A stretch of DNA of 64,000 bases from Candidatus Kapaibacterium sp. (GCA_963665665.1 OY762428.1:2912001-2976000); one strand, 5' to 3'; positions 1,599-25,070 are shown, counted from the stretch's first letter. A program made the numbers and translations. The notes: generated by a model not told the origin, from the sequence alone.

Positions 1599-1611
1599 TT
1601 CAAACTCCTAT

Positions 1612-1782: not shown

Positions 1783-1792
1783 TCTTACCTCT

Positions 1793-3328: not shown

Positions 3329-3338
3329 ATCTTCCTCC

Positions 3339-4928: not shown

Positions 4929-4930
4929 CT

Positions 4931-5004
4931 CAGTTTACAGTTGACAATTGATAGTGGACAGTTTTTCTTTAACTATCAACTATCCACTGTAAACTATCAA
5001 CTAC
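4931..5004. repeat. Heptamer-repeat inverted repeat, (YAGTTGA)n...(TCAACTR)n
   Basis: cagttta-cagttga-caattga-tagtgga-cagt then actatca-actatcc-actgtaa-actatca. Confidence 0.8.
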
Positions 5005-5045
5005 TCTTGTATTATTACAGGTATTGAGTGTGGGTAGGGAGTGAG
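4987..5045 (-). promoter_or_regulatory. Putative late promoter P1
   Basis: Sense CTCACTCCCTACCCACACTCAATACCT-N5-AATAC-N12-TAGTTTACAG; one of four copies. Confidence 0.7.
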
Positions 5046-5101
5046 GTTTATATTTCTACAAATCCAGTTAATTCTCATGGAAAGCTATGGCTCTTATAAA
5101 A

Positions 5102-5140
5102 AGAAAAAGCTGAACCTTTTATTGAGATTCCAGTTTTTCT
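5102..5140 (-). terminator. Probable intrinsic terminator after ompA-like moron
   Basis: Imperfect hairpin with A/T tails; shares TTGAGATTCC with the 15458-15489 hairpin. Confidence 0.45.
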
Positions 5141-5184
5141 GTGAATACCTTGGCAGATGAGGATTTGAAGAAAAATTAGCATTG

Positions 5185-6546
5185 CTACTTTAAAAATTTA
5201 AATTCTACCCTTCTGTTTTTTGCTTTGCCTTCATCAGTTTTATTATCTGCAATAGGTTTAGATTCTCCATATCCAATAGCAATAAGATTATTTTTGTTAA
5301 TACCTTTTTTGATTAAATAGTTTACAACTGATTGGGCCCTTGATTGTGACAAACGTTTGTTGTAGGAGTCGCTGCCATCACTATCAGTATGACCGGAAAT
5401 TTCTACCTTAACATTTGGATATTCCTTAAGCAATTCAACTAATCTATCGAGTTCGGAATATGATTCGGGCCTCAAATCCGATTTATTATATTCAAAAAAG
5501 ATATTGTTTACAGTAATACTCCCATCCCAGGGTTTCTTCATTATAATGTCTTTAGTTATGGTAGTTTCTTTCTTTTGACCTTTCAACATTGCATTATCAG
5601 ATATGCTTGAGTATCCCTTCTTTTGAAAATAAAATGCATAATTCGAGCCTATAGGAACTTTGAATTCATAGCTCCCATCAGACGGCGAACTATTTGTAGT
5701 TCCTATTTCAACATTTTTATAATTCTCGCTCATCAGCTCCCACCCTACTTTAACTTCCAAAGGCGATCCGTTCGTCGTTTTTACAGTTCCTTTTACGGTT
5801 GCAAAGACAGGCGTTCCTTCGCCAAAAAGCTTTAGTATTGCAGGCTGCGTCTGGTTTTCATAACTTACGATTATTCTGCCGTCCGTCCTTCCGTCCTTCA
5901 CGGGAGCAAAACCGATATTCAATTCTTTGGTTTCATTCGGAGCCAAAGAAAAAGGAGTAAATTTATCGGTTAAAGAAAACTGCGAACCGGACTCGTTATC
6001 GATCGAAATTGAAGTAATTTTTATCGGACTTGTACCTATATTTTTTATCGCTTTCGATATAGCCCTGTCCGATTGAGAAAATATCGGGACTTTGCCAAAA
6101 TCGACAATTCCGGAATAAACTTCGATTTTCGCCTCGACGCTCTCGCCCGAGATTTTATAGATCAGCGTATCGGCCTGCGTTACTATAACGACGTCGGCCG
6201 TTTTCATTCCTGAGCTTTGCGGATTAAAGCGAAACTCGATATCCCTGCCAGAATTCGACGGAATAGAAAAGGGGAACACATACGTCAAAAGCCGGAAATC
6301 ATTAGCATGATCTCCGGCAATAGTAATATTATCAATCCTAACAGCAAACTTTCCCGTATTTTGTAAATAACCGGCAAAAACGGAATCCTTTTTTGTATTA
6401 TTCAATACTTGCCCGAAATCAATATCCATTGCCGACGCTTTGGGAACGATAATTGAAAGTCGATTGTCTGATTTGTCCTGGATTTGAGCTAAAGTCTCAA
6501 TATGTAGAGACAACAGCAAAACAATATATAAAATTAAATATTTCAT
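5185..6546 (-). CDS. OmpA-family protein with two ASH/Ig-like domains (moron)
   Basis: Signal peptide; C-terminal NNIFFEYNKS...ISGHTDSDG...NKRLSQSRA...KNRRVEF OmpA peptidoglycan-binding domain. Confidence 0.85.
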   Translation of the reverse strand: MKYLILYIVLLLSLHIETLAQIQDKSDNRLSIIVPKASAMDIDFGQVLNNTKKDSVFAGYLQNTGKFAVRIDNITIAGDHANDFRLLTYVFPFSIPSNSGRDIEFRFNPQSSGMKTADVVIVTQADTLIYKISGESVEAKIEVYSGIVDFGKVPIFSQSDRAISKAIKNIGTSPIKITSISIDNESGSQFSLTDKFTPFSLAPNETKELNIGFAPVKDGRTDGRIIVSYENQTQPAILKLFGEGTPVFATVKGTVKTTNGSPLEVKVGWELMSENYKNVEIGTTNSSPSDGSYEFKVPIGSNYAFYFQKKGYSSISDNAMLKGQKKETTITKDIIMKKPWDGSITVNNIFFEYNKSDLRPESYSELDRLVELLKEYPNVKVEISGHTDSDGSDSYNKRLSQSRAQSVVNYLIKKGINKNNLIAIGYGESKPIADNKTDEGKAKNRRVEFKFLK

Positions 6547-6570
6547 TCTTATATCCTTAATAATTTCAAA

Positions 6571-8652
6571 TTAATCCCGGACGCAGCGAACCGAATTCCC
6601 GCACGCCTTACCACTTTCTCGTCTCCCTATTTTAGATGAGGAAATTCCCCTTTCCCAAGCAAGAGTATCGTCTGATTCTGTGGCTGTCCACCAATAACCG
6701 ATACCTCCTTGCCAACCAAAGATATTAAATCTATAACCTCCCGGAACAGCAGAAAAACCGGTTTTATCAAAATTTTTATTTCTCATCAATATTTCTTCAT
6801 CTTCATAACGAAAAGTCCATAAATCCGGTTCCCCCGCCAACTGCGCGCCTTGGTCTGATCCTCGCTCATATTCTTTATCAGCTTCAGACCGGCTCATCCC
6901 AAGACACATTTCAAGTTCTTTCCATTCTTCGTCGGTGGGCACGTGCCAGCCCTCGGGCGCTAAACCGCGAGGGTCGTTCACAGCATACCAATTGTAAAGC
7001 TTACCGTAGATTTCTCCATTAGCAGGATCATTGTTGTAATAGCACCATGCTCCGGTTTTCAGGTTTTCCCATTCTTCGGTGTCCTTCACTTCAGGAATTG
7101 GATCCCCATTGCGGTACCGGTCAACATTCAGATTGCAGCCCATCCATATCTTGCCGCATATCTCCACATCGTTTTCACAACCTGTGTATTCTTCATACAT
7201 CGCCTTTGCTGTTGCTCTTACCCATACTTTATTACTCGGATAATTTGGCACCCGCCACCTGTATGCCAGACCACTTGCGGTGTCAGTAATCTGATTCCAG
7301 TTCTTCCCGTCATCAATAGTGTATTCTAATTTCACATAATCGGCAGGCGATACGCCCTCCCATGTTATTGTTGTATCGCTGCCTGCAACTAATTCTTCGC
7401 CGCCATTAGGAAAGACTATTTTGATATTTTGAGTTATCAGTGATTTCTTTTTTATATCGCCACCGGAAACATAGAAATATTTGCCATAGCATGAGTTGCT
7501 TTCAATTTCAAATCTGGAAAAAGCATATGATGAATCGTCTGGGCTGAATTCTATTCTCAATTCTCTTGTTTCGCCTGGTAACAGTGAAAATGGAGGATTT
7601 GTCCCCCCGTAATCAATTATTGTCATCTTTGGGTTACTGCTAATTATTGATTTAACATTTACAGGCTCAACCTGTGCAGTGATTGAGATTTTTTCAGTAT
7701 ATGTCTTTCCCGATTCCTTTATTCCAAATTTAATTGAAGCAGATGGAGAAAACTTCAGCTTAGGCAGTTTGTCGTAAGAGACGGAATAACTGAAATCTGT
7801 CATAAGTCCAATATCCGATATTGATAATTCTGCTTTCCTTTTTGTCGGACATCCTCCGCTTATCCATTCGATTTCGCATGGGTCGCCGCCCTGGGCAAAC
7901 ATAAGAATGCTTTTATAAATATCTTCTGCCTGTTTTTCAGTTGTAACGTTATCGAAATACATTCCGCCGGTCTTTTTCGATATCTCCTTAAGCAAGTCAG
8001 GTGTTGGGTTATCGACTGTAACACAATAGACTGTAGCGCTGATATCATTTGCTTTTTCAATTATTTCTTCTTGATTACCACTTGCAAAGCCGTCAGTAAA
8101 CAAAACAACAACCTTTTTATATTTTCCTTGTTCTGCAACCCGCAAAGCCCCGGCGCTCCTATCTATAAAAGCCGCGTCAAAATCTGTCCCGTCGTTGCAA
8201 TTCAGGCTTTGTATGCTGTTTATCAATTCTGCTCTATTATGCGAAAAATCAGAAATGAAAAAATTATCCGATTCGAACCCTGTAATAGCACATTCTGATG
8301 TTCCAAGTGGTAAAAGTTTTAGCCAGGTAGTTGCAGCTGCTTTCAGAATATCCATCGAACGACCACACATCGAGCCGGATAAATCAACTGTTAAAACTGC
8401 AGATATGGGTTGAGAAGGCTGTGGCGCAGGACAATTAATATTTGTAATTTGTCTTTCAATTCTATCCTCTTTAAGAATCAGCGTATAATTCGACAAATTG
8501 CTCATTACCGTTCCATCATCATCAACTACAAAACATTTGGCTTTCATTTCCGGAAATGTTGAGGCATCGATATCGAATACAGTAATATCTTGTGCCATAA
8601 TTGAGGATGATAGAATAAAAAGCAAGAAAAATTTGACTAATATTTTTCTCAT
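6571..8652 (-). CDS. Secreted VWA + Ig + FISUMP (Fib_succ_major) domain protein (moron)
   Basis: MIDAS DLSGSM...TDG; FPNGGE Ig domain; WMGCNLNV...YGKLYNWYAV...PEGWHVP...GNSVRCVRD; ATG 8652 preferred over TTG 8664. Confidence 0.85.
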   Translation of the reverse strand: MRKILVKFFLLFILSSSIMAQDITVFDIDASTFPEMKAKCFVVDDDGTVMSNLSNYTLILKEDRIERQITNINCPAPQPSQPISAVLTVDLSGSMCGRSMDILKAAATTWLKLLPLGTSECAITGFESDNFFISDFSHNRAELINSIQSLNCNDGTDFDAAFIDRSAGALRVAEQGKYKKVVVLFTDGFASGNQEEIIEKANDISATVYCVTVDNPTPDLLKEISKKTGGMYFDNVTTEKQAEDIYKSILMFAQGGDPCEIEWISGGCPTKRKAELSISDIGLMTDFSYSVSYDKLPKLKFSPSASIKFGIKESGKTYTEKISITAQVEPVNVKSIISSNPKMTIIDYGGTNPPFSLLPGETRELRIEFSPDDSSYAFSRFEIESNSCYGKYFYVSGGDIKKKSLITQNIKIVFPNGGEELVAGSDTTITWEGVSPADYVKLEYTIDDGKNWNQITDTASGLAYRWRVPNYPSNKVWVRATAKAMYEEYTGCENDVEICGKIWMGCNLNVDRYRNGDPIPEVKDTEEWENLKTGAWCYYNNDPANGEIYGKLYNWYAVNDPRGLAPEGWHVPTDEEWKELEMCLGMSRSEADKEYERGSDQGAQLAGEPDLWTFRYEDEEILMRNKNFDKTGFSAVPGGYRFNIFGWQGGIGYWWTATESDDTLAWERGISSSKIGRRESGKACGNSVRCVRD

Positions 8653-8732
8653 GATAATTTCCAATCTTATTTCCCAAAATAATTCAAATTAACATATTTT
8701 TGGGAAAAAAAAAAACGAGATTGTTTTTCAAC

Positions 8733-9020
8733 TTAATTACAAACCGCCACTCCGGCAAAAGCAAACTTGAACTCGATTTGAAGCTCATTCTCAGAGATAT
8801 GCTCTATATGCCCGTAAACGACATTGCCGGAGCTGTCGAGGGAAGAAACGGAAGGCCTTTTATTGAGATTGTGGGTAACTGTCCAGATTTGGCTTGCTGT
8901 TAGCTGTTCGTGGATATAGTGGACATCGGCAATACCCGGTTCAAGATCATCAGGTTTGATCTTACCGAGCTTGTTGAATTTGATCTCGCCATTCTCTATA
9001 TCTGCTTTTTGGACAAACAT
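8733..9020 (-). CDS. Small phage structural protein (THNL domain)
   Basis: WTVTHNLNKRPSV motif related to the C-terminus of 3339-4928. Confidence 0.65.
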   Translation of the reverse strand: MFVQKADIENGEIKFNKLGKIKPDDLEPGIADVHYIHEQLTASQIWTVTHNLNKRPSVSSLDSSGNVVYGHIEHISENELQIEFKFAFAGVAVCN

Positions 9021-9466
9021 TACTTAGTCAGGCTCCCGACAGTGAACCCAACAGCGACACCGCCGATAATATAAACCGGAGTTTCCCACCACGAGCGTTC
9101 TCTCATGATTTCTTTGGTGATATAAATAGTCTGAATCATTGTGCTGTCCGGTTTCTTCCTAATCATCAGATCAAAGCTATTTTCCGGGAACTCGTATTTT
9201 GCATAAACCGTATCCCTTTTGATAACCGTGTCAACCACAGCTACAAATGGCTTTGTCTCAATCATAGTATCCCGTTTGTAGATGATTTTCGGCTTAATCT
9301 TCTCAATAACTATCGGTTCGGATTCCTTAATAATCAGAACTGTATCCTTCCGGATAATGGTATTGGTAATCGGCTCGCAATGCTTAGTTGACCTTCCGAG
9401 AAAGAATGACAATGCAATCATTACGAGAATCAGGATTGTTCCGGCTATGTATTTGTATTTTTCCAT
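9020..9466 (-). CDS. Spanin-like membrane protein of lysis cassette
   Basis: N- and C-terminal hydrophobic segments, RDT repeats, follows endolysin. Confidence 0.5.
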   Translation of the reverse strand: MEKYKYIAGTILILVMIALSFFLGRSTKHCEPITNTIIRKDTVLIIKESEPIVIEKIKPKIIYKRDTMIETKPFVAVVDTVIKRDTVYAKYEFPENSFDLMIRKKPDSTMIQTIYITKEIMRERSWWETPVYIIGGVAVGFTVGSLTK

Positions 9467-10071
9467 TAGCTATTTACCGAAGTAAATCCAACAAAACCTC
9501 TTACAGCCATCCTTCCTATGAAATGCTTGTAATTTCTCTTCCTGATATATACTCCTTCGCCATCATCCTGAGAGCCTTTCCTGCCGGAACTTGTATTGAA
9601 ACCTACAGTCCTAATCCATCCGGCTTTCATAACTTCGATTATCCTCTCAACATGACCACGCCAAACTCTCGGCTTTTTCCAGAAAATCAGGTCATTGACT
9701 TTCGGAAAAGGAAATGTTTTCCTGCCATTCTTCATAGCATGGTTGAACATGGATACGGTTGAGCCTGTTCTTTTAATCGGTATTTCAGATAATGCAAAAC
9801 TCAAATCCTGACAGGCAGAATAAAAACACCAGTACTGGCCTGCCGCACAATAAGGATTACCTTTTCTCAGACCTACAGATTTGAGGTACTGCTCAACCAT
9901 ATATCCGTCATTCCTGCCAGTCCTTTCCTTTACTCCAACCTGGGCAATGGCAGAATCTGCCGACGCCTGAATCAATTCACTCCTGCACGTCATTACATAT
10001 CTTGCAAGCGGAAAAAGCTCGGCAGAGGCCGCTATATGAAGTAATATCAGCAATATTATCTTGTATTTCAT
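9466..10071 (-). CDS. Endolysin, CHAP-like, with signal peptide
   Basis: GVKERTGRNDG..VEQYL..VGL..GNPYCAA (Cys) ... GHVE (His) ... GFNT. Confidence 0.75.
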   Translation of the reverse strand: MKYKIILLILLHIAASAELFPLARYVMTCRSELIQASADSAIAQVGVKERTGRNDGYMVEQYLKSVGLRKGNPYCAAGQYWCFYSACQDLSFALSEIPIKRTGSTVSMFNHAMKNGRKTFPFPKVNDLIFWKKPRVWRGHVERIIEVMKAGWIRTVGFNTSSGRKGSQDDGEGVYIRKRNYKHFIGRMAVRGFVGFTSVNS

Positions 10072-10079
10072 AGTAGCAC

Positions 10080-10424
10080 CTAATTAGCAAACTGAGCGAT
10101 ATATACACCAAGAACAATCAGACCGACAAGAATATGCACTCCAAGGAAAATGTATCCGAGAACGTTTAGGACAGCTCCCTTTTCGGAGGAATTGATCTTG
10201 CCGTCATCTCCTTCCAGCAGGAATTTTGTAAAAGGTATCCGGGTGTAAACATAAAGTGCTATTCCAGACAATGCCAAAGCAGATGCTTCGAGAAATGCTA
10301 TCAGTAGGAATGTCTGAATCTCAGCGCTTCCCGGTTTCAAGAAGAAGTATGCTATGGCTCCGAGTATTATCCAAACAGTGTTTCTGGAAATAAAGTCGAT
10401 TACTGCTTTCAGTTTGTCATTCAT
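10080..10424 (-). CDS. Putative holin
   Basis: 114 aa, three hydrophobic helices, directly upstream of endolysin. Confidence 0.6.
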   Translation of the reverse strand: MNDKLKAVIDFISRNTVWIILGAIAYFFLKPGSAEIQTFLLIAFLEASALALSGIALYVYTRIPFTKFLLEGDDGKINSSEKGAVLNVLGYIFLGVHILVGLIVLGVYIAQFAN

Positions 10425-10435
10425 ATTTTACCTTT

Positions 10436-10726
10436 CTAATATGTACTTACTAAATGTTCGTTGAATCTTTTCTGAAGTTCTGTAAGGATGAGCTTAATGG
10501 CTTCAAGTTCCTTTTTTACCTGGTCATCATAGATGTCAACCCTTTGTTCAAGAAGCTTTACCCGGCGTTCCAGGTCATTGAATTTTTCGACATCTGCCAG
10601 CTTCTTTGAGAATATTTCCTCATTGGCTTTCCTGTTGTCCCTTTTCAGCATAAAATAGAAGGTCAGAAGCCCGATAATCAGGATTCCGAACTGTATGATG
10701 TTATATATCAGATTGCTTGTAGTCAC
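10436..10726 (-). CDS. Single-TM coiled-coil protein (holin/antiholin-like)
   Basis: N-terminal TM plus coiled coil, in lysis cassette. Confidence 0.5.
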   Translation of the reverse strand: MTTSNLIYNIIQFGILIIGLLTFYFMLKRDNRKANEEIFSKKLADVEKFNDLERRVKLLEQRVDIYDDQVKKELEAIKLILTELQKRFNEHLVSTY

Positions 10727-10729
10727 GCC

Positions 10730-11131
10730 CTAATCCCCAATGAAATAAACTGTCGGAAGCATAAATCTCATCTCATAATGCCATTTGTCATCTTCGACAA
10801 AGAGAAACTTCTCAGTCAGAGGATAAAGCTTCATATTCTCAATGTATAGGTCATTCGTCAGGGAATACCGGACCCTGTCCAGAGTTTCATAAGCCCCGAG
10901 ATGAGAACGAAGGTTTCTGACAATGACAATCACATCAATTTCAATCATCCTTGCCTGCTGTTCCAGCCTCGGATTTGTATAGTTTGAGCCTTCATAACTG
11001 ACCAACACTGCTCCGTTGGGATGCAGTAGTTCGTAATCCTTCACATTCTCCGGAAAAGGCTCAACAGCCAGATCGGTAATATCCGCCTGGAGCTTGGCTA
11101 CAATAGCATTTTCTATGTCTTTAATAGTCAC
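10730..11131 (-). CDS. Mu gp37-like tail-completion protein
   Basis: IENAIVAKL...FPE...HPNGAVLVSY.GS...GAYETLDRVR; follows gp36-like gene. Confidence 0.7.
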   Translation of the reverse strand: MTIKDIENAIVAKLQADITDLAVEPFPENVKDYELLHPNGAVLVSYEGSNYTNPRLEQQARMIEIDVIVIVRNLRSHLGAYETLDRVRYSLTNDLYIENMKLYPLTEKFLFVEDDKWHYEMRFMLPTVYFIGD

Positions 11132-11152
11132 TATTCACTTTTCATTTCTTCA

Positions 11153-11185
11153 AACTTTCAACTGTCAACTATCAACTGTCAACTA
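11153..11185. repeat. Heptamer tandem repeat (AACTRTC)n, single arm
   Basis: aactttc-aactgtc-aactatc-aactgtc-aacta. Confidence 0.75.
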
Positions 11186-11601
11186 ATAAAGTTATCCATC
11201 GCTTTCTTTGGTACAACAGGCTCCCTTTCAGAAAAAAGAAAGAATCCCGGCCTTGTTTCAGGAGTCCCTTCATTAAGAGTGATTGTCCCTTTCTGCAGCT
11301 TCTCCAAAGTCGATATGCTGTCCTTGTAAAGATTCTGAATACTGTCGAAGACCTTACCTCTCCGCTTATACAGCTCGTATTTAACTATATCAATACAGGC
11401 TTTTCTCAGGATAGAATGTTCATTCTCAAGAGGTAGATTATACCTTGCCCTCAGAAAGCCATCAATGAAATCTCCTGCATCAGATATATACTTATCAACC
11501 AAAGCTTCATCCACAACATTAGGATCAGCATCATTACTGAGCTGGGCAGTCACCTTCTCGGTTAAATCATCTTTTATATCCTGAATTGTACAGTACATCA
11601 T
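11179..11601 (-). CDS. Mu gp36-like (DUF1320) head-tail adaptor
   Basis: MYCT..D...DA...IDGFLRARYNLPL...C.DI..Y.LY.RR. Confidence 0.8.
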   Translation of the reverse strand: MMYCTIQDIKDDLTEKVTAQLSNDADPNVVDEALVDKYISDAGDFIDGFLRARYNLPLENEHSILRKACIDIVKYELYKRRGKVFDSIQNLYKDSISTLEKLQKGTITLNEGTPETRPGFFLFSEREPVVPKKAMDNFIS

Positions 11602-11630
11602 CCTTCACTAAAAGTATTTTCAAATCTCTT

Positions 11631-11689
11631 TGCTAAGATATTGGGATTTGATGTAGTGTCCTATGCATTGAGTGTGGGTAGAGAGTGAA
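11631..11689 (-). promoter_or_regulatory. Putative late promoter P2
   Basis: TTCACTCTCTACCCACACTCAATGCAT-N5-ACTAC-N12-TATCTTAGCA. Confidence 0.75.
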
Positions 11690-11791
11690 ATTATCAAAAA
11701 ATACGTATTTATACGGATAAAAATACCAAGTTCTTGGTATTGATTTTTTGATTAACATTTGTCACTTTGTAGTTATCAGTTTTTTTAATTC

Positions 11792-12610
11792 TTGAAGGAA
11801 TATAACATGAGACGATTTTTAGCCTTTATAGTATTTGTTTATTTGTTTTCCCCAATAGACAATATTGCTCAAATAATTGACATCAATTATTCTAATTTAA
11901 AAGGGGTAAATGCCATAACTGATACAGTAAAGAAAGAATCAAAAGATATTGAACTTTTGAGTCGTGGTTTTATGGACATTTTTTCTAATGGCAAAATGCA
12001 AAGTACAGCTCAAATATTAAAAATTAATATTGGAGAAAAAGATGGCTTCTATTTTCCTTTCTTTCTATTATTGGGGGCTTCAGGTGATGGTCTTGGTGAA
12101 CAAGAATTGAATGAAAATACAATAGCAAATTTGTTAAACCCATTAGGTGGTATTATTAATGGATCATTTAATGGCAAGAATAATTTATTGTCCTCAGAAT
12201 CTGGGATAACTTCATTAAATTTAGCATATCAAATTTCAGGAAAGTTAATAAATGCTCAAGATTCACTATCAGGAAACTCCAAATTTTTGGGAGTTGGTTA
12301 TGGTAATATAGGTCTCTTTTTTCAAACAGGAGCTTGGGATCCTGATGATGCTGGAAATATGGGAGTCTTTTGGGTTCAAGTAAAAGCCGCAGGTTCATTA
12401 GCTTTTGATAATGCAGTGATTAAAGAAGTCTTTGGAAACTCAGTAATTGATAGTTATTTTATTGGTTATTCCATAGATTTAGGTATTGAAATTGATAAAA
12501 AAATTAATTTGAAAGCTGGAATTTATCAATATTTAAACAGCCAAGATATAATTCTTATGAAAGATCCTGTTTTTAAATTTTCTTTGGATTACAATCTTGA
12601 AAATGATTGA
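11792..12610 (+). CDS. Exported, probable outer-membrane protein (moron, antisense to late genes)
   Basis: Signal peptide (likely ATG 11807), amphipathic beta-strands, near-terminal FSLDYNL; AT-rich. Confidence 0.6.
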   Translation: MKEYNMRRFLAFIVFVYLFSPIDNIAQIIDINYSNLKGVNAITDTVKKESKDIELLSRGFMDIFSNGKMQSTAQILKINIGEKDGFYFPFFLLLGASGDGLGEQELNENTIANLLNPLGGIINGSFNGKNNLLSSESGITSLNLAYQISGKLINAQDSLSGNSKFLGVGYGNIGLFFQTGAWDPDDAGNMGVFWVQVKAAGSLAFDNAVIKEVFGNSVIDSYFIGYSIDLGIEIDKKINLKAGIYQYLNSQDIILMKDPVFKFSLDYNLEND

Positions 12611-12700
12611 TTAATTCAGGATTTATTATTCATAAGTTCATCAAATATTTAAGCGTTTTCCGAAAGTAATTATTTAATAATATTTTTTATTAAGCTTTCT

Positions 12701-12752
12701 TTGCAAACTGCTACTCCAGCAAATGCAAATTGAACTCAATATGAAGTACATT
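12701..12752 (-). pseudogene. Frameshifted relic of the 3' end of a paralogue of gene 8733-9020
   Basis: 43 of 53 positions identical to 8737-8789 with one 1-nt gap; encodes ...HIEF/FAFAGVAVC. Confidence 0.7.
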
Positions 12753-12773
12753 ATTAGGATTTCCAATAATATT

Positions 12774-12804
12774 TTACGCCCCCTAAAACATTAGAGGGCG
12801 TTTC
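12774..12804 (-). terminator. Hairpin terminator after major capsid gene
   Basis: acgccccctaa-aaca-ttagagggcgt. Confidence 0.55.
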
Positions 12805-12807
12805 CAT

Positions 12808-13854
12808 TTATATCACCATAGCCGAAATAACCGCATTAGGTTCATGGATAGTCGGCAATGATTTCTGTTCAACTTTCCAGTCCAAAGCTGTTTTGTCATC
12901 GTTAGTATTAGTTTCCACCAATAGTTCATTCTGATAGATTTTCAGATTGCCGTTCTCGATCCTGTAAATTGGCCCGAAATGAACTTTGAAGCCCAAGGAT
13001 TTACTTGCCACCATGATAGCCTTCTTAGGGTCAATCATATCGGTAGTGACATCATCGGTATCTGTGTATTGCTGGTTATACTCGAAAATATCAATACCCA
13101 TTATCCTGCCGATATAAATACCAGAACGGGTATTCGATTGGGTCATGTCAAGCACGCCGATACGGTTGTTGTTGGTATCCAGTTCCTTCTTGATTGAATC
13201 ATGAGATACAAAGGCATCTGCAGCTTCACTGCCAAGAATCATGATATCAGCGTTGACACCACTTCGTTTCATGATGTCCCTTTTCCATGCCCTGAGTTTC
13301 TTCAAAGGTTTGGCAGTGGCATCGCTCCATTTATCTGCTGCAGCAAGCGTAACAAGATGAACGCCGTCTTCAAACTCGAAATCAACTGAGAATTCAATAT
13401 TATCCTGGCTGACAATAACTTCACCGGTTGAAAGAGCTTCACAAGCCATCTGCTCACGTCTTCGGATAATCCTGTTTTTCAGTTCTTCCAGTTCCTGGAG
13501 GATCATCTGATTTGCAAGCCTTGTCCTTTCTTCAGGGCTCGTCACGTAGATATTGCCGATTGACTTGTAGTTTGCAAGCTCAAGGGCAGTGAAGAGTTTC
13601 TTCTCGAAAGTCCTTGGCAGGGAGATGGTTTTGATTTCCTTGCTCAATTTCTTGATCGGCAAAGCACCTTCATGCTGATTTACGAACTGAGCCAGCTTAT
13701 TTGAGCCTGTGATGATCTCAATGTCGATTTTATCCGCTGCATGGAACTGCCTGTTTTTGAAGAAAGTATTCAAAACGAACGGTTCAATTACCTTCGACCT
13801 GTTAATCGCATTCGTCAGGCTCCGGGATTCAAACATATCAATTAATGCGCTCAT
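12808..13854 (-). CDS. Major capsid protein (lambda gpE-like family)
   Basis: 348 aa, RRREQMACEALSTG motif, follows protease and decoration genes. Confidence 0.85.
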   Translation of the reverse strand: MSALIDMFESRSLTNAINRSKVIEPFVLNTFFKNRQFHAADKIDIEIITGSNKLAQFVNQHEGALPIKKLSKEIKTISLPRTFEKKLFTALELANYKSIGNIYVTSPEERTRLANQMILQELEELKNRIIRRREQMACEALSTGEVIVSQDNIEFSVDFEFEDGVHLVTLAAADKWSDATAKPLKKLRAWKRDIMKRSGVNADIMILGSEAADAFVSHDSIKKELDTNNNRIGVLDMTQSNTRSGIYIGRIMGIDIFEYNQQYTDTDDVTTDMIDPKKAIMVASKSLGFKVHFGPIYRIENGNLKIYQNELLVETNTNDDKTALDWKVEQKSLPTIHEPNAVISAMVI

Positions 13855-14219
13855 GCCTGTTCCTCCTTAATCACTATTGAACCATTGTTGTATACTCCTG
13901 TGGATATTTCCTGTGCCGCTGTCAGGGCTGATTTCAGGAACTCCCCGTGAACGTACATGAAGCCTTTGCCGTCGCTGTCTGTAGCATCCACATTGCAGCC
14001 GAGTATTCCGACTAAGTTTTCTGTTCCATCAACAACTGTATTGTCCCAGATGTAATATTTGCCTGTGGCTGTTTCCTTGCCGAGGCAGGTTCCCCTTGTC
14101 AGGTTCTGACCGGAAGCGATGACAATATTGGTGATCTCCATATTTGGATGGAGACTTGCAGGTATGTCAACCGAAGGATCCATGTCAGCAAGTTTTGTAA
14201 AACCAAGATCGATTCCCAT
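13851..14219 (-). CDS. Head decoration protein (gpD-like)
   Basis: IASGQNLTRGTCLGK...GIL...Y.HGEF...L; between protease and capsid. Confidence 0.75.
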   Translation of the reverse strand: MGIDLGFTKLADMDPSVDIPASLHPNMEITNIVIASGQNLTRGTCLGKETATGKYYIWDNTVVDGTENLVGILGCNVDATDSDGKGFMYVHGEFLKSALTAAQEISTGVYNNGSIVIKEEQA

Positions 14220-15364
14220 TATTTATCTCCTTCGTTTTTGTAGTATTCGTCGATAAATTTATTCTGCTCTTCGAAGCTGTTGACGTTACCGGCTAAGGCT
14301 TTGTCAGCTATCTCTGAAAACTCCACCTGTGTCGGGAATGATTCGATCAGCTTTTTGATTATATCTTCGCCCCTGAGGGTTTTGGTAACTCCGTTCTCTG
14401 AGAATTCAAAGCCCTTGTCATGCCCTCTGGCAGTCTCAAAAGCCAGGCGGACAAGGTTCTTCTGTGCCGGGACTAATCGCCCTGTCTGTGAGCTGAAATA
14501 CTCATTGAATTTCATCTCCCTGTTGTCGTTTTCAAGAGATTCAAGTTTTATCTGCATCTCCTGATACTCCCTTGACTGGGTTAGGTCAATTTTGTTTTTT
14601 CCATCATTTGCTTCAACAAGCTTAGGTGGATTTTCCTCTTTCCTGATGTGCCTGTCTTTGATTTTTTCAAGCTCCTCAGCTGTCTGGTTGGCAATCTCTT
14701 CGTTGAAAGTCTGACCAAGCCATGTAAGGAGGTCTTCGAATAGTTTAGCATAGTTCTCCGGCATACTGCCTCCCTGGAAATTTATTTTTTGTGAATTGTC
14801 TTCTGAAAAATCTTCGGATTTTGAGGGAGAGAAATATATATTTCTTTTCTTTTCCTTTCTTTCCTGATTGTTTTTGTTGCCCTTCTGTTCATCATCCGTT
14901 GAACAGGTGTTCGATTCTGTTCGAGCATTCGTTAAATTCTCTTCAAACATCAGTTCAACAAATGCTTCATCACTGTTGAAATTTGTGTCTTTCAAACCCT
15001 TAACTGCCGGAGGAACTGCTCCCAAATATCCAACGTGGCGGAGCATCATATCCGGGTACAGGGCTATGGAAACTTTCTTGTACTTTCCGTCCTTAATAAG
15101 TTGTTCGAACTCTGGATCAAGCTGATTGAATTTAGCAAGCAACCTTTCGCCATCACGTTTCAATTGCTCAACCCAGGCATAAGCAGGAGAGTTATTCACA
15201 GGATGTCCAATTACTACAGGAGCTTCATGTTTTTCATCAGGAAGCTGATTATTGTATTTTGCTGCAATAGTGTCGAGGTCTTCAATAGTCCAGTCTTTCT
15301 CTTGCCCGCCTGCATCTGTGTGCAGACCGGCTTTAAAGACCTCCTTCCATATATCCTTTGGCAT
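14219..15364 (-). CDS. Mu gpI-like prohead protease/scaffold
   Basis: EVFKAG.H.D...APVVIGHP...PAYAWV...YKKVS...LRHVGYLGAVPPAVKGL; internal SD+ATG at 14764. Confidence 0.85.
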   Translation of the reverse strand: MPKDIWKEVFKAGLHTDAGGQEKDWTIEDLDTIAAKYNNQLPDEKHEAPVVIGHPVNNSPAYAWVEQLKRDGERLLAKFNQLDPEFEQLIKDGKYKKVSIALYPDMMLRHVGYLGAVPPAVKGLKDTNFNSDEAFVELMFEENLTNARTESNTCSTDDEQKGNKNNQERKEKKRNIYFSPSKSEDFSEDNSQKINFQGGSMPENYAKLFEDLLTWLGQTFNEEIANQTAEELEKIKDRHIRKEENPPKLVEANDGKNKIDLTQSREYQEMQIKLESLENDNREMKFNEYFSSQTGRLVPAQKNLVRLAFETARGHDKGFEFSENGVTKTLRGEDIIKKLIESFPTQVEFSEIADKALAGNVNSFEEQNKFIDEYYKNEGDK

Positions 15365-15388
15365 TTTCCACCTTTATAGTTTTACCTC

Positions 15389-15447
15389 TGCAAAGCTATT
15401 TATGGCGGTTGTATTGGGCAATGCACTTAATGTGGGTATGGAGTGAA
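15389..15447 (-). promoter_or_regulatory. Putative late promoter P3 (Mu PI analogue)
   Basis: TTCACTCCATACCCACATTAAGTGCAT-N5-AATAC-N12-TAGCTTTGCA, an exact TAnnTTTG. Confidence 0.75.
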
Positions 15448-15457
15448 GGGAAAATAT

Positions 15458-15489
15458 AAAAAACCGGAATCTATTTTTGAGATTCCGGC
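15458..15489 (-). terminator. Intrinsic terminator after WG-repeat gene
   Basis: Minus strand CCGGAATCT-caaaaat-AGATTCCGG followed by a T run. Confidence 0.7.
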
Positions 15490-15645
15490 CTGTCCTTTTA
15501 TTACTTATTATTAAAATGGATTTGGAGATGGCGGTTTATATATTAATTTTTAAACTATTCTTTATTTAATACCACATTTTTATAAATGTTTTTGACGTTT
15601 TTTATGCTCACCTTTGTTCTAATCATTACAAATTTAGAAGAATTT

Positions 15646-18600
15646 TTACATACAGTTAGGATCTGGCATTTCATCCACATATCCATGAATATCATTTTTA
15701 GAATGAATTTGTATGTAAACGATTGGAATAATAATCCTTCCAGTTTTATCAATAAAGCCGTATTTCCCATCTTTTGCTACTTTTGCCAGTCCTTTATAAA
15801 AATAATCTGCATAGTCATATTCAACAGGTACTAATACTTTGCCGCTTTTATCTATAAAGCCGTATTTCCCATCTTTTGCTACTTTTGCTAGGCCTTCGCT
15901 GAAAGAAGAGACATGATCATATTCAACAGGTACTATTACTTTACCGCTTTTATCTATAAAACCCCACTTATCACCTTTTCTTACTCTTGCAAAACCTTCA
16001 TGGAAAAAAATGCATCCATCATATTCAACAGGTACTATTACTTTTCCGCTTTTATCAATAAAACCGTATTTCCCATCTTTTTCTACTATTGCTAGGCCTT
16101 CGCTGAAAGAAGAGACATAATTATATTCAGGTACTATTACTTTGCCGCTTTTATCTATAAAACCGTATTTCCCATCTTTTTCTACTATTGCTAGGCCTTC
16201 GCTGAAATAAGAGACATAATTATATTCGAAAGGTACTATTACTTTGCCGCTTTTATCTAAAAAGCCGTATTTGCCATCTTTTTCTACTCGTGCAAGACCT
16301 TCGTTAAAAGAATCGACATAATCATATACAAGGGGTATTACTAGTTTACCCCTTTTGTCTATAAACCCATATTTCCCATCTTTAGAAACTTTCGAAAGCC
16401 CATCGCTGAAACCATAGAAAAACTCATTATCATAATCAAGCGACATAATTTCCTTACCGCCTTTATTTATAATAAATCTTTTCCCATCTTTCATAACTTT
16501 AGCGTAGTCATCTTCATAGAAATGAAATTTTTTATCATATATTAATGGAATTACTACTTTACCGTTTTTATCAACCGATCCCCATTTTCCTTTTTTTTGA
16601 ATTTGAATTAAATCACCATCTCTGAAACAAGAGACTTTATTATATTTCAATGGAATGACAAATTTTCCTTTCTTATTAATAAAGCCTAAACTACTTCCGA
16701 CTTCCACTTCTGCAAGACCGTCGCGGAAAAAATCAATCCAATCATATTCGAAAGGTATTACGACTTTACCACTTTTATCAATAAAGCCATATTTCCCATC
16801 TTTTTTTACTCCTGCAAGACCTTCTCTGAACCAATTTGCATCTTCATATTCGAAAGGTATTACGACTTTACCACTTTTATCAATAAAGCCATATTTCCCA
16901 TCTTTTTTTACTCCTGCAAGACCTTCTCTGAACCAATTTGCATCTTCATATTCGAAAGGTATTACGACTTTACCACTTTTATCAATAAAGCCAAATTTTC
17001 CATCTATTCTTACACTTGCAAGACCTTCTCTGAACCAATATGCTTCTTCATATTCAAATGGAATAATTTCCTGACCATTATTTTTAATATCAATATAACC
17101 CCATTTCTCTGATTTTTTTGCTAGAACAATTCCTTCTGAAAGTGAATTGTATTCTATTCTTTCGTATTCAGGTGGAACTATTGTTTTCCCAGTTCTATCA
17201 ATAAGTCCTCTACCTCCATTTGTTTTTCCTACTTCAAAATATTCATTATATGATCCAGTAATTGAACGATATTTAAAATCAACAACTACTTCACCTAAGC
17301 TGTCAATTATTCCATCATACCCTTTTGTATCTGTTACATGTGCCAAACCATTATGATAATTAAAGGCATTAATATATATAAATGGAATTACGACTTCTCC
17401 TTTTTTATTAATATATCCATACTTTCCATCCTTTTTGACATATGCTAATCCTTCAGAGAAATTTCCCACTGAAGATTTATCATATATAGGTTTATATTTA
17501 GATTCATAAATATCATATTTAATAGGAATGACGACTTTTCCAGTAGAATCTATATATCCGGTTTTACCGTATTTTTCAACCCTAACCAGCCCTTCGTTGT
17601 AGTTACCAATAAAATCATAGTCTAATGGAAAAACTACAGCTCCCGAGGTATCTATATATTTCCATACTCCTTCTTCTTTAACTCTTGCAATGCCTTCTTG
17701 AAAATCACTCACTTCTTCATACTTAGTGGCAATTACACCTTTCCCTGTTGTGTCTATAAACCCCCACCCATTCAAATAACCGCCTTTTGCATGTTTTACT
17801 TTAGCAAAACCATTTTTAAAATTATTAATAATTTCATATTCGACAGGTAATACTTCTTCACCTTTGTTATTTATTATCCCATATCGATAACAACGACCTT
17901 GACAACATATACCTTGAACCCTTGCTAATTTTTGATTTAAAAATTCAATGTTAGAGTAATCAAAACTAAATAACTCATCACCGCTTTTATCAATGAAAGT
18001 CTTTTTTCCACCTATTATTACCTGGGCGATCCCATCACTGAAATCTCCAGCTTCGTCATAATCAAAAGGTATTACAACATTGCCACTCTTGTCAATAAAT
18101 CCACACTTTCCATTTTTTCTCACCTTGGCAAGTTCTTCTGAAAAGTTAAAAGGATAGTCATAAGGGATATAAACCCCGAGAGATTCCAAATTAATAACAA
18201 TATTCCCACTTTTATCTATAAAGCCGTATTTCTCATCCTTATTTACTGCTGCAAGACCTTCATGAAAATTCTCAGCCCTGTCATACTCAAACGGAATGAC
18301 TATTTTACCGGTTTTATCTATAAAGCCATATTTATTTCCTTTACGTACTCGTACAAGATTATCTGAAAATTCCCAAACTGCAGCATATTCAGAATAGAAA
18401 ATGATTTTTCCGTTTTTGTCAATAAAGCCCCACTTATCATCTTTTTTTACTTTTGCCATTCCATTTTTGAAATCATGAGCTCTTTCAAATTCATAAGGAA
18501 TTACTTCATTGCCGCTCTTGTCAATAAAGCCATACTTCCCATCTTTTTCTATAGCAGCTAAATCTTCTGAAAAATCATTGCTTTTATAAAATTTGAAAGA

Positions 18601-19050
18601 TATTAACAACTTTCCTTTTTTATCTATGTATCCTGACTCTTTATTATTATAAACTCTTGCGAGTCCACAACTAAAATCTCTTGCCTCAGTGTATTTTATT
18701 GGAATTACTACTTTGCCGCTTCTATCTATAAAGCCGTAATCACGATCTTTTTTCACTAATGCAAGTTCATCGCTGAAAGATCCGGCCTTATCATATTCTA
18801 AGGGAACAACAATTTCTCCATCATTATTAATAAAGCCCCATTTCCCATTACTACTTACTCTCGCAAGCCCTGAATGAAAATCACCCACAAATTCGAATTC
18901 TTCTCTAAAAGTAAGAAAGACATCTCCATCTTTATCAAGAAAATGGAATTGCCCTTTTCCATCATTTGCAATAAAAGCAATATCTTTATTATTATCACAT
19001 GCAGAGATTAGTATTATCATAAAACTTAAAATAATTGAAATTCTGGTCAT
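15646..19050 (-). CDS. WG-repeat (KWG) lipoprotein (moron)
   Basis: Lipobox-like ISAC; about 30 repeats of FSEGLA.V.KDGKYGFIDK.G.VVIP..Y. Confidence 0.9.
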   Translation of the reverse strand: MTRISIILSFMIILISACDNNKDIAFIANDGKGQFHFLDKDGDVFLTFREEFEFVGDFHSGLARVSSNGKWGFINNDGEIVVPLEYDKAGSFSDELALVKKDRDYGFIDRSGKVVIPIKYTEARDFSCGLARVYNNKESGYIDKKGKLLISFKFYKSNDFSEDLAAIEKDGKYGFIDKSGNEVIPYEFERAHDFKNGMAKVKKDDKWGFIDKNGKIIFYSEYAAVWEFSDNLVRVRKGNKYGFIDKTGKIVIPFEYDRAENFHEGLAAVNKDEKYGFIDKSGNIVINLESLGVYIPYDYPFNFSEELAKVRKNGKCGFIDKSGNVVIPFDYDEAGDFSDGIAQVIIGGKKTFIDKSGDELFSFDYSNIEFLNQKLARVQGICCQGRCYRYGIINNKGEEVLPVEYEIINNFKNGFAKVKHAKGGYLNGWGFIDTTGKGVIATKYEEVSDFQEGIARVKEEGVWKYIDTSGAVVFPLDYDFIGNYNEGLVRVEKYGKTGYIDSTGKVVIPIKYDIYESKYKPIYDKSSVGNFSEGLAYVKKDGKYGYINKKGEVVIPFIYINAFNYHNGLAHVTDTKGYDGIIDSLGEVVVDFKYRSITGSYNEYFEVGKTNGGRGLIDRTGKTIVPPEYERIEYNSLSEGIVLAKKSEKWGYIDIKNNGQEIIPFEYEEAYWFREGLASVRIDGKFGFIDKSGKVVIPFEYEDANWFREGLAGVKKDGKYGFIDKSGKVVIPFEYEDANWFREGLAGVKKDGKYGFIDKSGKVVIPFEYDWIDFFRDGLAEVEVGSSLGFINKKGKFVIPLKYNKVSCFRDGDLIQIQKKGKWGSVDKNGKVVIPLIYDKKFHFYEDDYAKVMKDGKRFIINKGGKEIMSLDYDNEFFYGFSDGLSKVSKDGKYGFIDKRGKLVIPLVYDYVDSFNEGLARVEKDGKYGFLDKSGKVIVPFEYNYVSYFSEGLAIVEKDGKYGFIDKSGKVIVPEYNYVSSFSEGLAIVEKDGKYGFIDKSGKVIVPVEYDGCIFFHEGFARVRKGDKWGFIDKSGKVIVPVEYDHVSSFSEGLAKVAKDGKYGFIDKSGKVLVPVEYDYADYFYKGLAKVAKDGKYGFIDKTGRIIIPIVYIQIHSKNDIHGYVDEMPDPNCM
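16742..16992. repeat. Exact 102-bp tandem repeat, about 2.5 copies, inside WG gene
   Basis: tcatattcgaaagg... restarts at 16742, 16844 and 16946. Confidence 0.85.
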
Positions 19051-19118
19051 GATTACCTCAAGGATATTTTCAAAAGTTTTTATTTTCCCTTAATTTACTA
19101 AATATTTGTTAACTCTCA

Positions 19119-19177
19119 AACACCCAATCCCCACACTGAGTGCATTTCATAATACCCGGTCTTTGATTTGTTTTGCA
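19119..19177 (+). promoter_or_regulatory. Putative late promoter P4 for the modification/packaging operon
   Basis: AACACCCAATCCCCACACTGAGTGCAT-N5-AATAC-N12-TTGTTTTGCA. Confidence 0.7.
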
Positions 19178-19245: not shown

Positions 19246-19959
19246 ATGGACGGTTTTATGAACAGGTTAACACCAAAACAAATCTATAATGAGCTTAGCG
19301 AAGTCTATGACCGGAGCTATGGCAGCAGGATACATGAGCTTGAGGATGATTATATTTACAGCTTCCTTGCTGAACACGGTTTTACAAAAGGCTGTCTTCT
19401 TGATTTAGGTTCCGGTACAGGTTCGATATTAAATCATGTCGGAATCAGGAAAGAAGATTATACCGGAATTGATGTTTCCGACAAGATGATCGAGATCAGC
19501 AAAAAGAAGTTTCCGGGATACAATTTTGCAATCGCTACTATGACCAACCTTCCTTTCGAAGATGAATCATTTGATAATGTCATTTCACTATTCGGCAGTT
19601 TTACATATGCCTATAAGCCCGGCAAAGCAGTTAAGGAACTGGATAGGGTTTTAAAGCCGAACGGTAAGTTCCTGATCATGGCTTGCGGAAAGAAGTACAA
19701 GTACAGGGAATCCTATATCCTGAATAAATTCGATATTGAAAGCCCGGCAAGGTTCTTTTCCAGAGATGAGCTAAAGGATTTATTCTTTGGATTCAGCAAT
19801 GTAAAGATATTCAGCATGACATGGTTAAGTGAAAAGCTTGCTGAAATACTTCCATACCGTTTAGACAGATTATACCACAACTTTGAAACAAAGTATCTAA
19901 GCCGGTTCATTCCCGAACAGTTTTACTTCCACATAATAATAGGACAGAAAGATGCCTAA
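19246..19959 (+). CDS. Class I SAM-dependent methyltransferase
   Basis: LLDLGSGTG motif I, GIDVSDKMI, LPFEDESFD, RVLKPNG. Confidence 0.85.
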   Translation: MDGFMNRLTPKQIYNELSEVYDRSYGSRIHELEDDYIYSFLAEHGFTKGCLLDLGSGTGSILNHVGIRKEDYTGIDVSDKMIEISKKKFPGYNFAIATMTNLPFEDESFDNVISLFGSFTYAYKPGKAVKELDRVLKPNGKFLIMACGKKYKYRESYILNKFDIESPARFFSRDELKDLFFGFSNVKIFSMTWLSEKLAEILPYRLDRLYHNFETKYLSRFIPEQFYFHIIIGQKDA

Positions 19960-21097: not shown

Positions 21098-21183
21098 TTG
21101 ATAGTGGACAGTTGAAAGTGGACAGTGAGAAGAGAATAAAAGAAAAAATTAACTATCAACTATCAATTATCAACTTTCAACTG
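21095..21183. repeat. Heptamer-repeat inverted repeat
   Basis: tagttga-tagtgga-cagttga-aagtgga-cagtg, A-rich loop, aactatc-aactatc-aattatc-aactttc-aactg. Confidence 0.85.
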
Positions 21184-21254
21184 AAATTCGGCGTAAATAC
21201 TTGATAAATATAGGTTTACATACAATAATAAAATAGAGTAACCGTCTTAAATAT

Positions 21255-21542
21255 ATGGAACTTACATCATTTATAGAATTCATTGACAGCCAGAAATGGA
21301 TATTTGCAAAGACTTATGCAAATAAAGCTCCTCATTCTTACTGCTTGAAGAAAAACTGTGAGGATATTGAGCGCTTCAATCAGGCTGTACAGTTTATCCG
21401 GGACAACGGAGTCAAAGAATTCTTCTATCGCAAAGCATTCATATACTTTTATCATGACGGTTACAAGTACTGGACTATGGGAGCGCCCATAGCTCAGACA
21501 ATACTAATTAACCGGACAAATGATTTTAGTAAATATGAGTGA
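21255..21542 (+). CDS. Small protein of modification operon, unknown function
   Basis: Aromatic-rich WIFAKTY...PH.Y...GYKYWTMG...LINR. Confidence 0.7.
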   Translation: MELTSFIEFIDSQKWIFAKTYANKAPHSYCLKKNCEDIERFNQAVQFIRDNGVKEFFYRKAFIYFYHDGYKYWTMGAPIAQTILINRTNDFSKYE

Positions 21543-21547
21543 TTTGA

Positions 21548-22228: not shown

Positions 22229-22229
22229 T

Positions 22230-25064: not shown

Positions 25065-25070
25065 ATAGCT

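Follow-up and report, generated by a model that had tools for sequence, protein, structure and literature searches.

In the P2 Ogr / P4 Delta system, a single small activator serves four late promoters that carry a common upstream dyad; Ogr is a zinc-finger protein, and its site is centered further upstream than those described below. In phage Mu, each of the four late promoters controlled by C carries a 16-bp imperfect dyad centered at −43.5 and is described as having a −10 element and lacking typical −35 hexamers (PMC2582627). The sites of Mor have the same center (PMC4390567, PMC2582627), and both proteins are reported to bind as tetramers that contact the α C-terminal domain (α-CTD), σ region 4 and the β flap (10.1101/2025.05.02.651988). 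Activators of the RinA/ArpU type, which belong to Gram-positive temperate phages, as presented in PMC3152322, are needed for the late operon, which has a tightly regulated promoter upstream of terS. A small activator that acts on several late promoters through a shared upstream dyad is textbook phage biology, and the locus described here extends this known theme and overturns nothing. In a 64,000-nt stretch of DNA from Candidatus Kapaibacterium sp. (hereafter the window; both strands were analyzed, and positions are those of the whole window), a prophage carries a 57-nt module in exactly four copies, P1 to P4, and encodes a 90-aa protein of the Mor family (29975..30247, − strand), the candidate late activator, whose gene is the last of a leftward early operon. 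It is very probable that the four modules serve as late promoters with a common regulator site; the whole statement, that these promoters are switched on by the 90-aa protein, is favored with more modest confidence, the regulator being assigned from its homology, its uniqueness and the position of its gene.

Little has been written on transcription control in phages of Ignavibacteria, Kapabacteria and Bacteroidota relatives, and our literature search turned up nothing on late promoters or Mor-type activators of these phages, nor a promoter map for their Ignavibacteria/Kapabacteria-like hosts. The locus is open to precise tests: its start sites are predicted at four positions, its invariant bases are defined, and it has a single candidate activator, through which the cooperation of an activator with a σ factor of the −7/−33 type could be studied. 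The module could also serve as a computational marker of late regions in related prophages and, together with the protein, possibly as an inducible promoter/activator pair for genetically poor hosts.

A four-copy module and its conservation

How specific is the module? Its 25-nt core, CACYCNNTMCCCACAYTVARTRCMT in IUPAC code, has four matches in the window, all exact; the same four are returned when up to three mismatches are allowed (64,000 nt, both strands), and none of 100 dinucleotide shuffles contains a match. The first-pass annotation, made from the sequence alone, had proposed four copies of an element of about 59 bp: the number stands, and the length becomes 57 nt (25 + 5 + 5 + 12 + 10). 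Counted from the first C (idx 1), the module opens with unit A (idx 1–10, CACTCnnTAC) and a 3-nt spacer; there follow unit B (idx 13–23, nCAYTnARTRC), which is an 11-bp imperfect dyad, a T-run (idx 25–27), AMTAC (idx 31–35), 12 variable nucleotides and an octamer (idx 48–55) that reads TAGTTTAC, TATCTTAG, TAGCTTTG or TTGTTTTG. The dyad first noticed, CACT-G-AGTG, is present in P4, but the repeating unit is 11 bp long and occurs twice: two tandem imperfect dyads, GYAYT-N-ARTRC (5-N1-5), stand 13 bp apart, with a third half-site 12 bp further on.

Each of the four copies is intergenic and points, as had been claimed, at the start of the open reading frame (ORF) named for it (4928−, 11601−, 15364− and 19246+). 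P1 (4987..5043, − strand; core 5019–5043(−)) consists of unit A at 5043–5034, unit B at 5031–5021, AATAC at 5013–5009 and a −7-like box, TAGTTTAC, at 4996–4989; its predicted start, at ~4984, has a fiber-like gene (3339–4928) as its 3′ neighbor. P2 (11631..11687, − strand; core 11663–11687(−)), with a −7-like box, TATCTTAG, at 11640–11633 and a predicted start at ~11628, lies ahead of a Mu gp36-like connector gene (11179–11601). P3 (15389..15445, − strand; core 15421–15445(−)) has unit A at 15445–15436, unit B at 15433–15423, TTG at 15421–15419, AATAC at 15415–15411 and the −7 box TAGCTTTG at 15398–15391; transcription would start at ~15386, ahead of the head protease, decoration and major capsid genes. 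P4, the one rightward copy (19121..19177, + strand; core 19121–19145(+)), combines unit A at 19121–19130, unit B at 19133–19143, AATAC at 19151–19155 and the −7 box TTGTTTTG at 19168–19175 with a predicted start at ~19180, ahead of an operon that runs from a methyltransferase gene to the terminase, portal, MuF and gpG-like genes. The module profile (nhmmer) scores P1 at 28.7 bits and P2 at 24.9 bits. All four copies precede blocks of virion genes (head, packaging, connector, fiber) and none stands ahead of early or immunity genes, so the idea that they mark the late units is borne out.

Other searches of the window returned chance levels or nothing: the 14-nt core alone, with up to two mismatches, has 6 matches against 5.66 expected, which is not significant; within positions 1–20000, a scan for E. 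coli-type −35/−10 promoters gave 68 sites (66.4 expected) and a terminator scan 13 (12.9 expected); Rfam and tRNA scans of the window gave no matches.

Is the module peculiar to this genome? A TerL scan of species-representative genomes yielded seven related loci, L001–L007, in metagenome-assembled genomes (MAGs) labeled Ignavibacteria, Kapabacteria or “Bacteroidetes”, with TerL identities of 82–83%; one of them, L003, is a 3.8-kb fragment without the promoter region. In the INPHARED phage collection, the best TerL match is at 43%, and there is no close relative. A composite pattern (unit B, N24, −7-like box) has 16 sites in 186,565 nt, four in the window and two in each of six of the seven loci, against a mean of 0.71 and a maximum of 4 in 200 shuffles; the pattern was written after the sites had been seen, so these shuffle statistics overstate the significance and count for less in favor of the promoter reading than they seem to. 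In each relative, the two sites are those of the promoters from which the protease and methyltransferase operons diverge, the orthologues of P3 (the leftward promoter of the relatives) and P4; in all six loci that hold them, the two genes are directly divergent and ~270–300 bp apart. A module profile finds the same 16 sites at E ≤ 2.1e-6 and then only partial extra units in the same intergenic regions at E ≥ 0.0034, the next-best window site having E = 7.1; built from the aligned rows, the profile is circular for the 16 sites and informative on the absence of others.

The gapless alignment first noted for the four copies extends to the relatives: 11 distinct copies of 75 nt each give 75 columns with zero gaps (five near-identical rows were left out, both from L002, both from L005 and the rightward copy of L006). 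Invariant positions are idx 15 (A), 21 (T), 23 (C), 25 (T), 48 (T) and 52–53 (TT), and idx 19, 20, 22, 26, 27, 35, 54 and 55 are nearly so, while the spacers and unit A vary. The least conserved part is AATAC, which is replaced by AAGGT, AGAAC or CTTGC in relatives. All four aligned rightward promoters (window P4, L001, L004 and L007) share the block GTGCATTT and the box TTGTTTTG without any difference, and the composite-pattern search found the same block and box in the rightward promoters of L002, L005 and L006. Between their divergent late promoters, the relatives carry two to four extra dyad units (5507–5570 in L001, 5481–5560 in L007), making an array of at least five units over ~110 bp, often in 13-bp steps.

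Repeats of this kind need not act in transcription: they could mark a recombination or insertion hotspot, serve as a packaging or replication site, or be a selfish small repeat. Three of the four copies border lineage-specific insertions, the copies are homogenized within the genome and arrays of extra units lie between the divergent operons of relatives, as such an origin would have it. It is nevertheless very improbable, given that in 16 of 16 copies the module is oriented toward the next gene and keeps an invariant distance between unit B and the −7 box, that orthologous copies persist in relatives without insertions, and that no copy lies near terminase or replication genes.

The copies of one genome resemble each other more than they resemble their counterparts elsewhere. 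Over units A and B, P1–P4 agree at a mean of 19.5 of 25 positions, against 13.5 of 25 for comparisons with the relatives' copies, even between orthologous pairs; P4 matches P1–P3 at 17–20 positions and its own orthologues at 9–13. The dyad reads ACAYT... in the window and GTAYT... in relatives. Judged from the sequences, the likeness of the four copies suggests that they were duplicated or converted within the genome, or that they co-adapted with one recognizer, and it would fit a single genome-specific recognizer.

Predicted promoter geometry

The original Bacteroides promoter consensus consists of TTTG at −33 and TAnnTTTG at −7. In the start-site map of Flavobacterium psychrophilum, the σA box TAnnTTTG lies at −12 to −5 (PMC9723704), and the RpoD motif of Chlorobaculum is presented as nearest to the Bacteroidetes motif, with RpoD proteins that group together (10.1101/172254). 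Applying the F. psychrophilum spacing (−12..−5) to idx 48–55 would make idx 60 the start, ~5 nt beyond the octamer. On this numbering, unit B would occupy −47..−37, with its center at about −42, and unit A would be centered at about −55; the T-run would fall at −35..−33, 19 nt from the −7 box and at the place expected of a −33 element, which the promoters would thus not be missing outright, and AMTAC would fall at −29..−25, with a conserved TRC near −27.

The earlier assignment of TAnnTTTG as a −7 box survives in part. Against this Bacteroidota consensus, which may not be the host's, the octamer of P3 matches at 8 of 8 positions, those of P4 and P2 at 7 and that of P1 at 6; the relatives' boxes, of the form TA[A/G][G/T]TTTG, match at 8 of 8 (leftward) or 7 of 8 (rightward) and keep the fixed distance. 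The P1 box is the part that fares worst, since besides its 6/8 score it lies inside an unrelated tandem 7-bp repeat and overlaps the hairpin formed by that heptad repeat. At −33, most copies have TTT without the G, which is absent in 10 of 11 aligned promoters (idx 28); P1 and P2 lack TTT altogether. The late promoters are thus like Bacteroidota housekeeping promoters in their 3′ box (TAGCTTTG in P3, TTGTTTTG in P4, TA[A/G][G/T]TTTG in relatives) and in the T-run 19 nt upstream, and unlike them in the missing G of the −33 TTTG and in the deviations of P1 and P2 at −7. The phage's own divergent immunity/early promoters (40383..40430, both strands) fit the full pattern, TTG-N(19–20)-TAnnTTTG, with boxes ending at 40412 (+) and 40430 (−); they have none of the late module's dyads and carry different inverted repeats of their own, and from their sequence would be an example of an unassisted promoter in this phage. 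A good (P3, P4, relatives) or mediocre (P2, P1) −7 box, a degenerate −33 element and an upstream dyad together look like the layout of an activator-dependent promoter.

Could the dyads instead be operators, through which an S24-family repressor (40501–41169, or the S24-like product of 41187–41657) silences otherwise competent late promoters in the lysogen? Two S24-family genes are present, and the P3 and P4 promoters of relatives, with near-consensus −7 boxes and a T-run at −33, might fire unaided. Yet the immunity region relies on its own, different inverted repeats and has no copy of the unit in its intergenic DNA; sites at −42 and −55, at a fixed distance from the −7 box, are typical of activators; and P1 and P2 have poor boxes (6/8 and 7/8) and no TTT at −33. 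We consider operators of this kind quite improbable. Still slimmer are the chances that the module is the promoter of an alternative σ factor, of host or phage, that would recognize AATAC and the 3′ box. AMTAC-N12-box does form a pattern of two parts at a fixed spacing, and a few Mor-like homologues touch σ70 region 4 models (4 of 43 close and 3 of 127 wider ones), but no ORF with σ region 2 was found among the 44 phage ORFs, the 3′ box fits the housekeeping −7 consensus, and AATAC is where relatives differ most.

Two features lie at or near predicted starts. In the leader of the P4 operon (19201–19210), the window and all five aligned relatives share an unchanged TTGATAC (alignment columns 36–42). 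RNA structure in this leader was considered and dropped: the consensus fold is weak (−1.44 kcal/mol, four pairs with compensatory change). At P1, a second repeat family, unrelated to the module, overlaps the −7-like box and the predicted start: tandem 7-bp AGTTGAY repeats stand at 4933–5001, 11158–11183, 21097–21181 and 34267–34312. Its pattern, GTTGAYAGTTGA, has 16 matches with at most one mismatch against 0.60 expected, in arrays at four intergenic spots, and is absent from all related loci. Three arrays form long hairpins, in the P1 leader (−28.9 kcal/mol, z = −5.8), at 34200–34335 (z = −3.1) and at 21085–21200 (z = −2.2).

A Mor-family candidate for the activator

The regulator had been proposed to be the Mor-like protein encoded at 29975–30247, and its kinship with Mor, established at the profile level from sequence comparison, holds up. 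Close homologues of the 90-aa protein number 58 among 65 candidates, and all 43 of those aligned match Pfam Mor (E ≤ 0.01; best 7.1e-8); the match in the 90-aa protein itself spans residues 20–89 on model positions 25–95 of 107. Against phrog_836 (late transcriptional activator) the protein has E = 1.5e-9 over residues 12–47 only. An exhaustive profile search with the family collected 566 representatives at E ≤ 0.001. From 127 of the 150 best matches listed, picked for near-query length, a broad profile was made, and its top match in PDB is Mor, 1RR7 (E = 1.1e-8), with Mu C, 9L0X, at E = 0.0018; hhalign gives this profile 96.8% against Mu Mor (E = 3e-10), pairing residues 27–90 with Mor 53–119, that is, the GGxxhYIP strand and the C-terminal helix–turn–helix (HTH). 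Among the 127 wider homologues, 74 match Pfam Mor at E ≤ 0.001.

The protein also has no competitor of its kind. In the window and the related loci, it is the sole Mor-family ORF (E = 6e-37; next best 1.1), neither contains a second Mor/C paralogue, and no other convincing regulator emerged among 12 small or unannotated ORFs (Pfam, E ≤ 1). With only one Mor-family gene, there can be no Mor-to-C cascade.

How would such a protein turn on four units at once? After induction, the leftward early operon would express its last gene, that of the 90-aa HTH protein, which would bind the dyads as an oligomer and would recruit or stabilize host RNA polymerase at promoters otherwise too weak to be used; packaging, head, connector/lysis and fiber genes would then come on together. 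Each late promoter would consist of a host σA −7 box, T[A/T]nnTTTG, a weak T-run at −33 and two tandem dyads immediately upstream. We infer the start sites, binding by the Mor-like protein, dependence on it and its oligomeric state from the arrangement described above.

Seen against Mu, the likenesses begin with the protein, a small phage HTH activator of the same family, and with the number of late promoters, four. They would extend to the position of the site, just upstream of and touching the −35/−33 element (predicted center about −42 here; −43.5 in Mu, in the sources cited above), and, judging by sequence, to a promoter whose downstream element is kept and whose upstream element is poor. 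There are also differences: Mu uses two steps, Mor and then C, where only one member of the family is encoded here; in place of the single 16-bp 5-N6-5 dyad of Mu stand two tandem 11-bp 5-N1-5 dyads plus a half-site; Mor and C have 129 and 140 aa, against 90 aa with a shorter N-terminal part; Mu promoters are of the −10/−35 type, those here would be of the −7/−33 type; and Mu is transposable, whereas this phage has primase-helicase replication and no transposase was found in it. The proposal of a Mu-like late switch is to be narrowed: a Mor-family protein, four probable late promoters and a dyad predicted near −42 remain, and the cascade and the dyad geometry do not carry over. A Mu-type dyad was sought by eye around unit B and dropped, as TGCAT-N6-ATGCA fits only the leftward promoter of L001. 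RinA/ArpU, like the system proposed here, is a phage activator required for a late operon, but it belongs to an unrelated protein family and serves a single late promoter with a different type of host σ factor. To our knowledge, no homology is to be expected between the 90-aa protein and P2 Ogr or P4 Delta.

Several points weigh against an activator of the Mor family acting on these sites. Taken by itself, the 90-aa protein scores 22.1 bits against Pfam Mor (PF08765), below the cut-off of 24.9 (E = 1.5e-4); the single protein, or a narrow profile of 43 homologues, finds no significant Mor match in PDB (E = 1.4); and hhalign with the close set only gives 40.7% against Mu Mor and 0.2% against C, which makes the Mor link weak and the C link nil at that depth. 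Residues 1–26 have no aligned counterpart in Mor 1–52, which holds the dimerization domain, the whole protein being 90 aa long against 129 for Mor. The dyads are tandem 5-N1-5 rather than 5-N6-5, so the docking of a Mor-like dimer would have to differ, and the window shows no excess of the 10-nt unit YAYTNARTRC by itself (12 matches against 14.25 in 200 shuffles; GYAYTNARTRC, 0 against 2.71), so that specificity must lie in the composite and not in the unit. None of the relatives' loci reaches the Mor-like gene, and co-occurrence of gene and module there rests on one weak clue; the seven loci themselves amount to only three independent lineages (L001/L002, L004/L005/L006 and L007). As for the promoters, TAnnTTTG is found in 10 of 42 upstream regions, a small sample from crude ORF calls in which no enrichment of the box was demonstrable, so that host σA can only be presumed to read it; the P3 and P4 promoters of relatives combine good −7 boxes with a T-run at −33 and might therefore be active to some extent without an activator; the −7 box of P1 may be a by-product of the heptad repeat; and the transcription starts and the binding of the 90-aa protein to the module are predictions.

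If the modules are late promoters with a regulator site, need the regulator be the Mor-like protein? Another phage or host protein could bind them, an unannotated early ORF product, the ParB-like protein or a host factor, with the Mor-like protein acting elsewhere. The tandem 5-N1-5 geometry differs from that of Mor and C sites as these are described (PMC4390567, PMC2582627), at least ten early ORFs have no family, and the P4 operon includes a gene for a ParB-like DNA-binding protein. That last protein, being itself expressed from P4, could not start the switch. Moreover, the Mor-like protein is the only product with homology to an activator, and its gene sits at the end of the early operon, the usual place of late activators. 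All in all, we regard a different regulator as unlikely, while granting it more than a token chance.

Prophage organization and the origin of the copies

The prophage extends from roughly 1 to 41,200. Pfam and PHROG scans of its 44 ORFs show a Mu-type head module (Portal_Mu, E = 7.6e-92; Phage_Mu_F, E = 8.8e-15; Phage_tail_S, E = 1.8e-10; Phage_Mu_Gp36, E = 2.6e-29; Gp37, E = 2.6e-25) and no transposase family. As judged from its genes, the phage is temperate and non-transposing, with Mu-type head genes; the earlier description of a non-transposable phage agrees with the count (transposase in 0 of 44 ORFs), with the primase-helicase/DnaD-like/Sak4 module and with the S24 repressor. The putative P4 unit (19246..27825, +) encodes a methyltransferase, a PAPS-reductase-like protein, a 95-aa ORF, a DNA methylase, a ParB-like protein, TerS, TerL, a Mu-type portal, and MuF-like and gpG-like proteins. 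The putative P3 unit (12808..15364, −) holds the head maturation protease, decoration protein and major capsid protein. To the putative P2 unit (5185..11601, −) belong Mu gp36-like and gp37-like genes, small ORFs, a CHAP endolysin-like gene and VWA/Fib_succ and OmpA-domain genes; the putative P1 unit (876..4928, −) comprises a fiber/virion-structural protein (3339–4928), which matches phrog_2647, phrog_11518 and others, and two ORFs of 544 and 240 aa without a family. On the early side, the S24 repressor gene (40501–41169, +), followed by the S24-like gene (41187–41657), faces the leftward early operon, which runs from 40349 down to 29975 (−) through Sak4-like, SMC-like ATPase, DnaD-like and primase-helicase genes and ends with the Mor-like gene. 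The Mor-like protein has no match in the INPHARED collection.

Which copies came first? Comparison with the relatives indicates that P3 and P4, and only these two, are ancestral. Between them, the window carries a WG-repeat gene (15646..19050, −; 1134 aa, 28 WG β-repeats, 32–35% G+C) that is absent from all six relatives holding the region, in which the orthologues of P3 and P4 stand back to back. The gene is probably cargo expressed on its own; a terminator-like hairpin just upstream of P3 (15461..15491, −; 12 pairs followed by the T-run TTTATATTTT) ends it. P2 has no counterpart in the four relatives in which the capsid gene abuts gp36 (L002, L004, L006 and L007). In the window, a lineage-specific insertion of 1.2 kb (11602..12807) occupies this capsid/gp36 junction, with P2 at its downstream edge, exactly at the restart point; it contains a hairpin after the capsid gene and a counter-oriented ORF of ~267 aa (ATG at 11808 to 12610, +) that has a signal-peptide-like N-terminus, judged by eye, and no Pfam or PHROG family. 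In L001, the junction holds an insertion unlike this one (1–2848, extending beyond the DNA analyzed), whose two counter-oriented ORFs, of 609 aa and at least 267 aa, have no Pfam family; the junction looks like an insertion hotspot. P1 follows the VWA and OmpA genes, and the relatives' DNA ends short of its region.

These arrangements suggest, tentatively, a further idea, which we rate as possible and somewhat doubtful in its entirety: that the module is a portable restart cassette for a Mor-family activator working with the −7/−33 σA of the Bacteroidota–Ignavibacteria lineage. An ancestral dyad array between the divergent late operons would nucleate one higher-order activator complex that serves both directions; when counter-oriented or terminated cargo lands in a late operon, a copy of the module would be duplicated to the far side of the insertion; and gene conversion, or selection from the genome's own activator, would keep that copy in step with its siblings. 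If this were so, the phage could take up cargo at any point of its late region and suffer no polar damage, and the tandem 5-N1-5 dyads would imply a docking on DNA unlike that in the solved Mor and C complexes.

Several other features of the region deserve mention. In the stretch 876–11601, the connector genes are followed by small ORFs, a CHAP enzyme, cargo-like surface proteins and fiber-like genes, and no tape measure, tube, sheath or baseplate family was recognized in it. A VWA plus Fib_succ_major protein and an Ig/OmpA-domain protein are encoded at 5185–8664 (−), inside the late region; over ~100 nt, the VWA gene has 71–74% DNA similarity to two host VWA/type IX secretion system (T9SS) genes (57422–57527 and 61720–61821), which suggests host-derived cargo. 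Between the end of the P4 operon and the Mor-like gene lies a 676-aa ORF (27854–29884, −; ~30% G+C) with a weak match to HATPase_c_3 (E = 0.0088) and no homologue in the relatives' loci, possibly a defense or cargo gene.

In relatives, ordinary host genes directly follow the gpG-like gene: L001 (15202–21356) has a σ54 activator, asparagine synthase and an ABC permease, and L007 (14314–21427) has FabH, PAP2, patatin and AcrB. At the point where the prophage of these relatives ends, that of the window goes on into the Mor-like and early genes; from this comparison, the window prophage appears circularly permuted relative to theirs, that is, it would have a different attachment point. In L005 (1–3430), a truncated protease gene has primase-helicase and DnaD-like genes as its immediate neighbors, which is not so in the near-identical L004 and L006; the difference reflects either a rearrangement or an assembly chimera. 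Adjoining the repressor in the window is a defense-rich stretch (41654–56714) in which the type I restriction–modification genes HsdM, HsdS and HsdR are interleaved with Hypoth_Ymh, an M78 peptidase/HTH protein, DUF4411 and a Schlafen/AlbA_2 protein; after them come a SIR2-like protein, DUF2971 and a tyrosine integrase-like gene (55419–56714).

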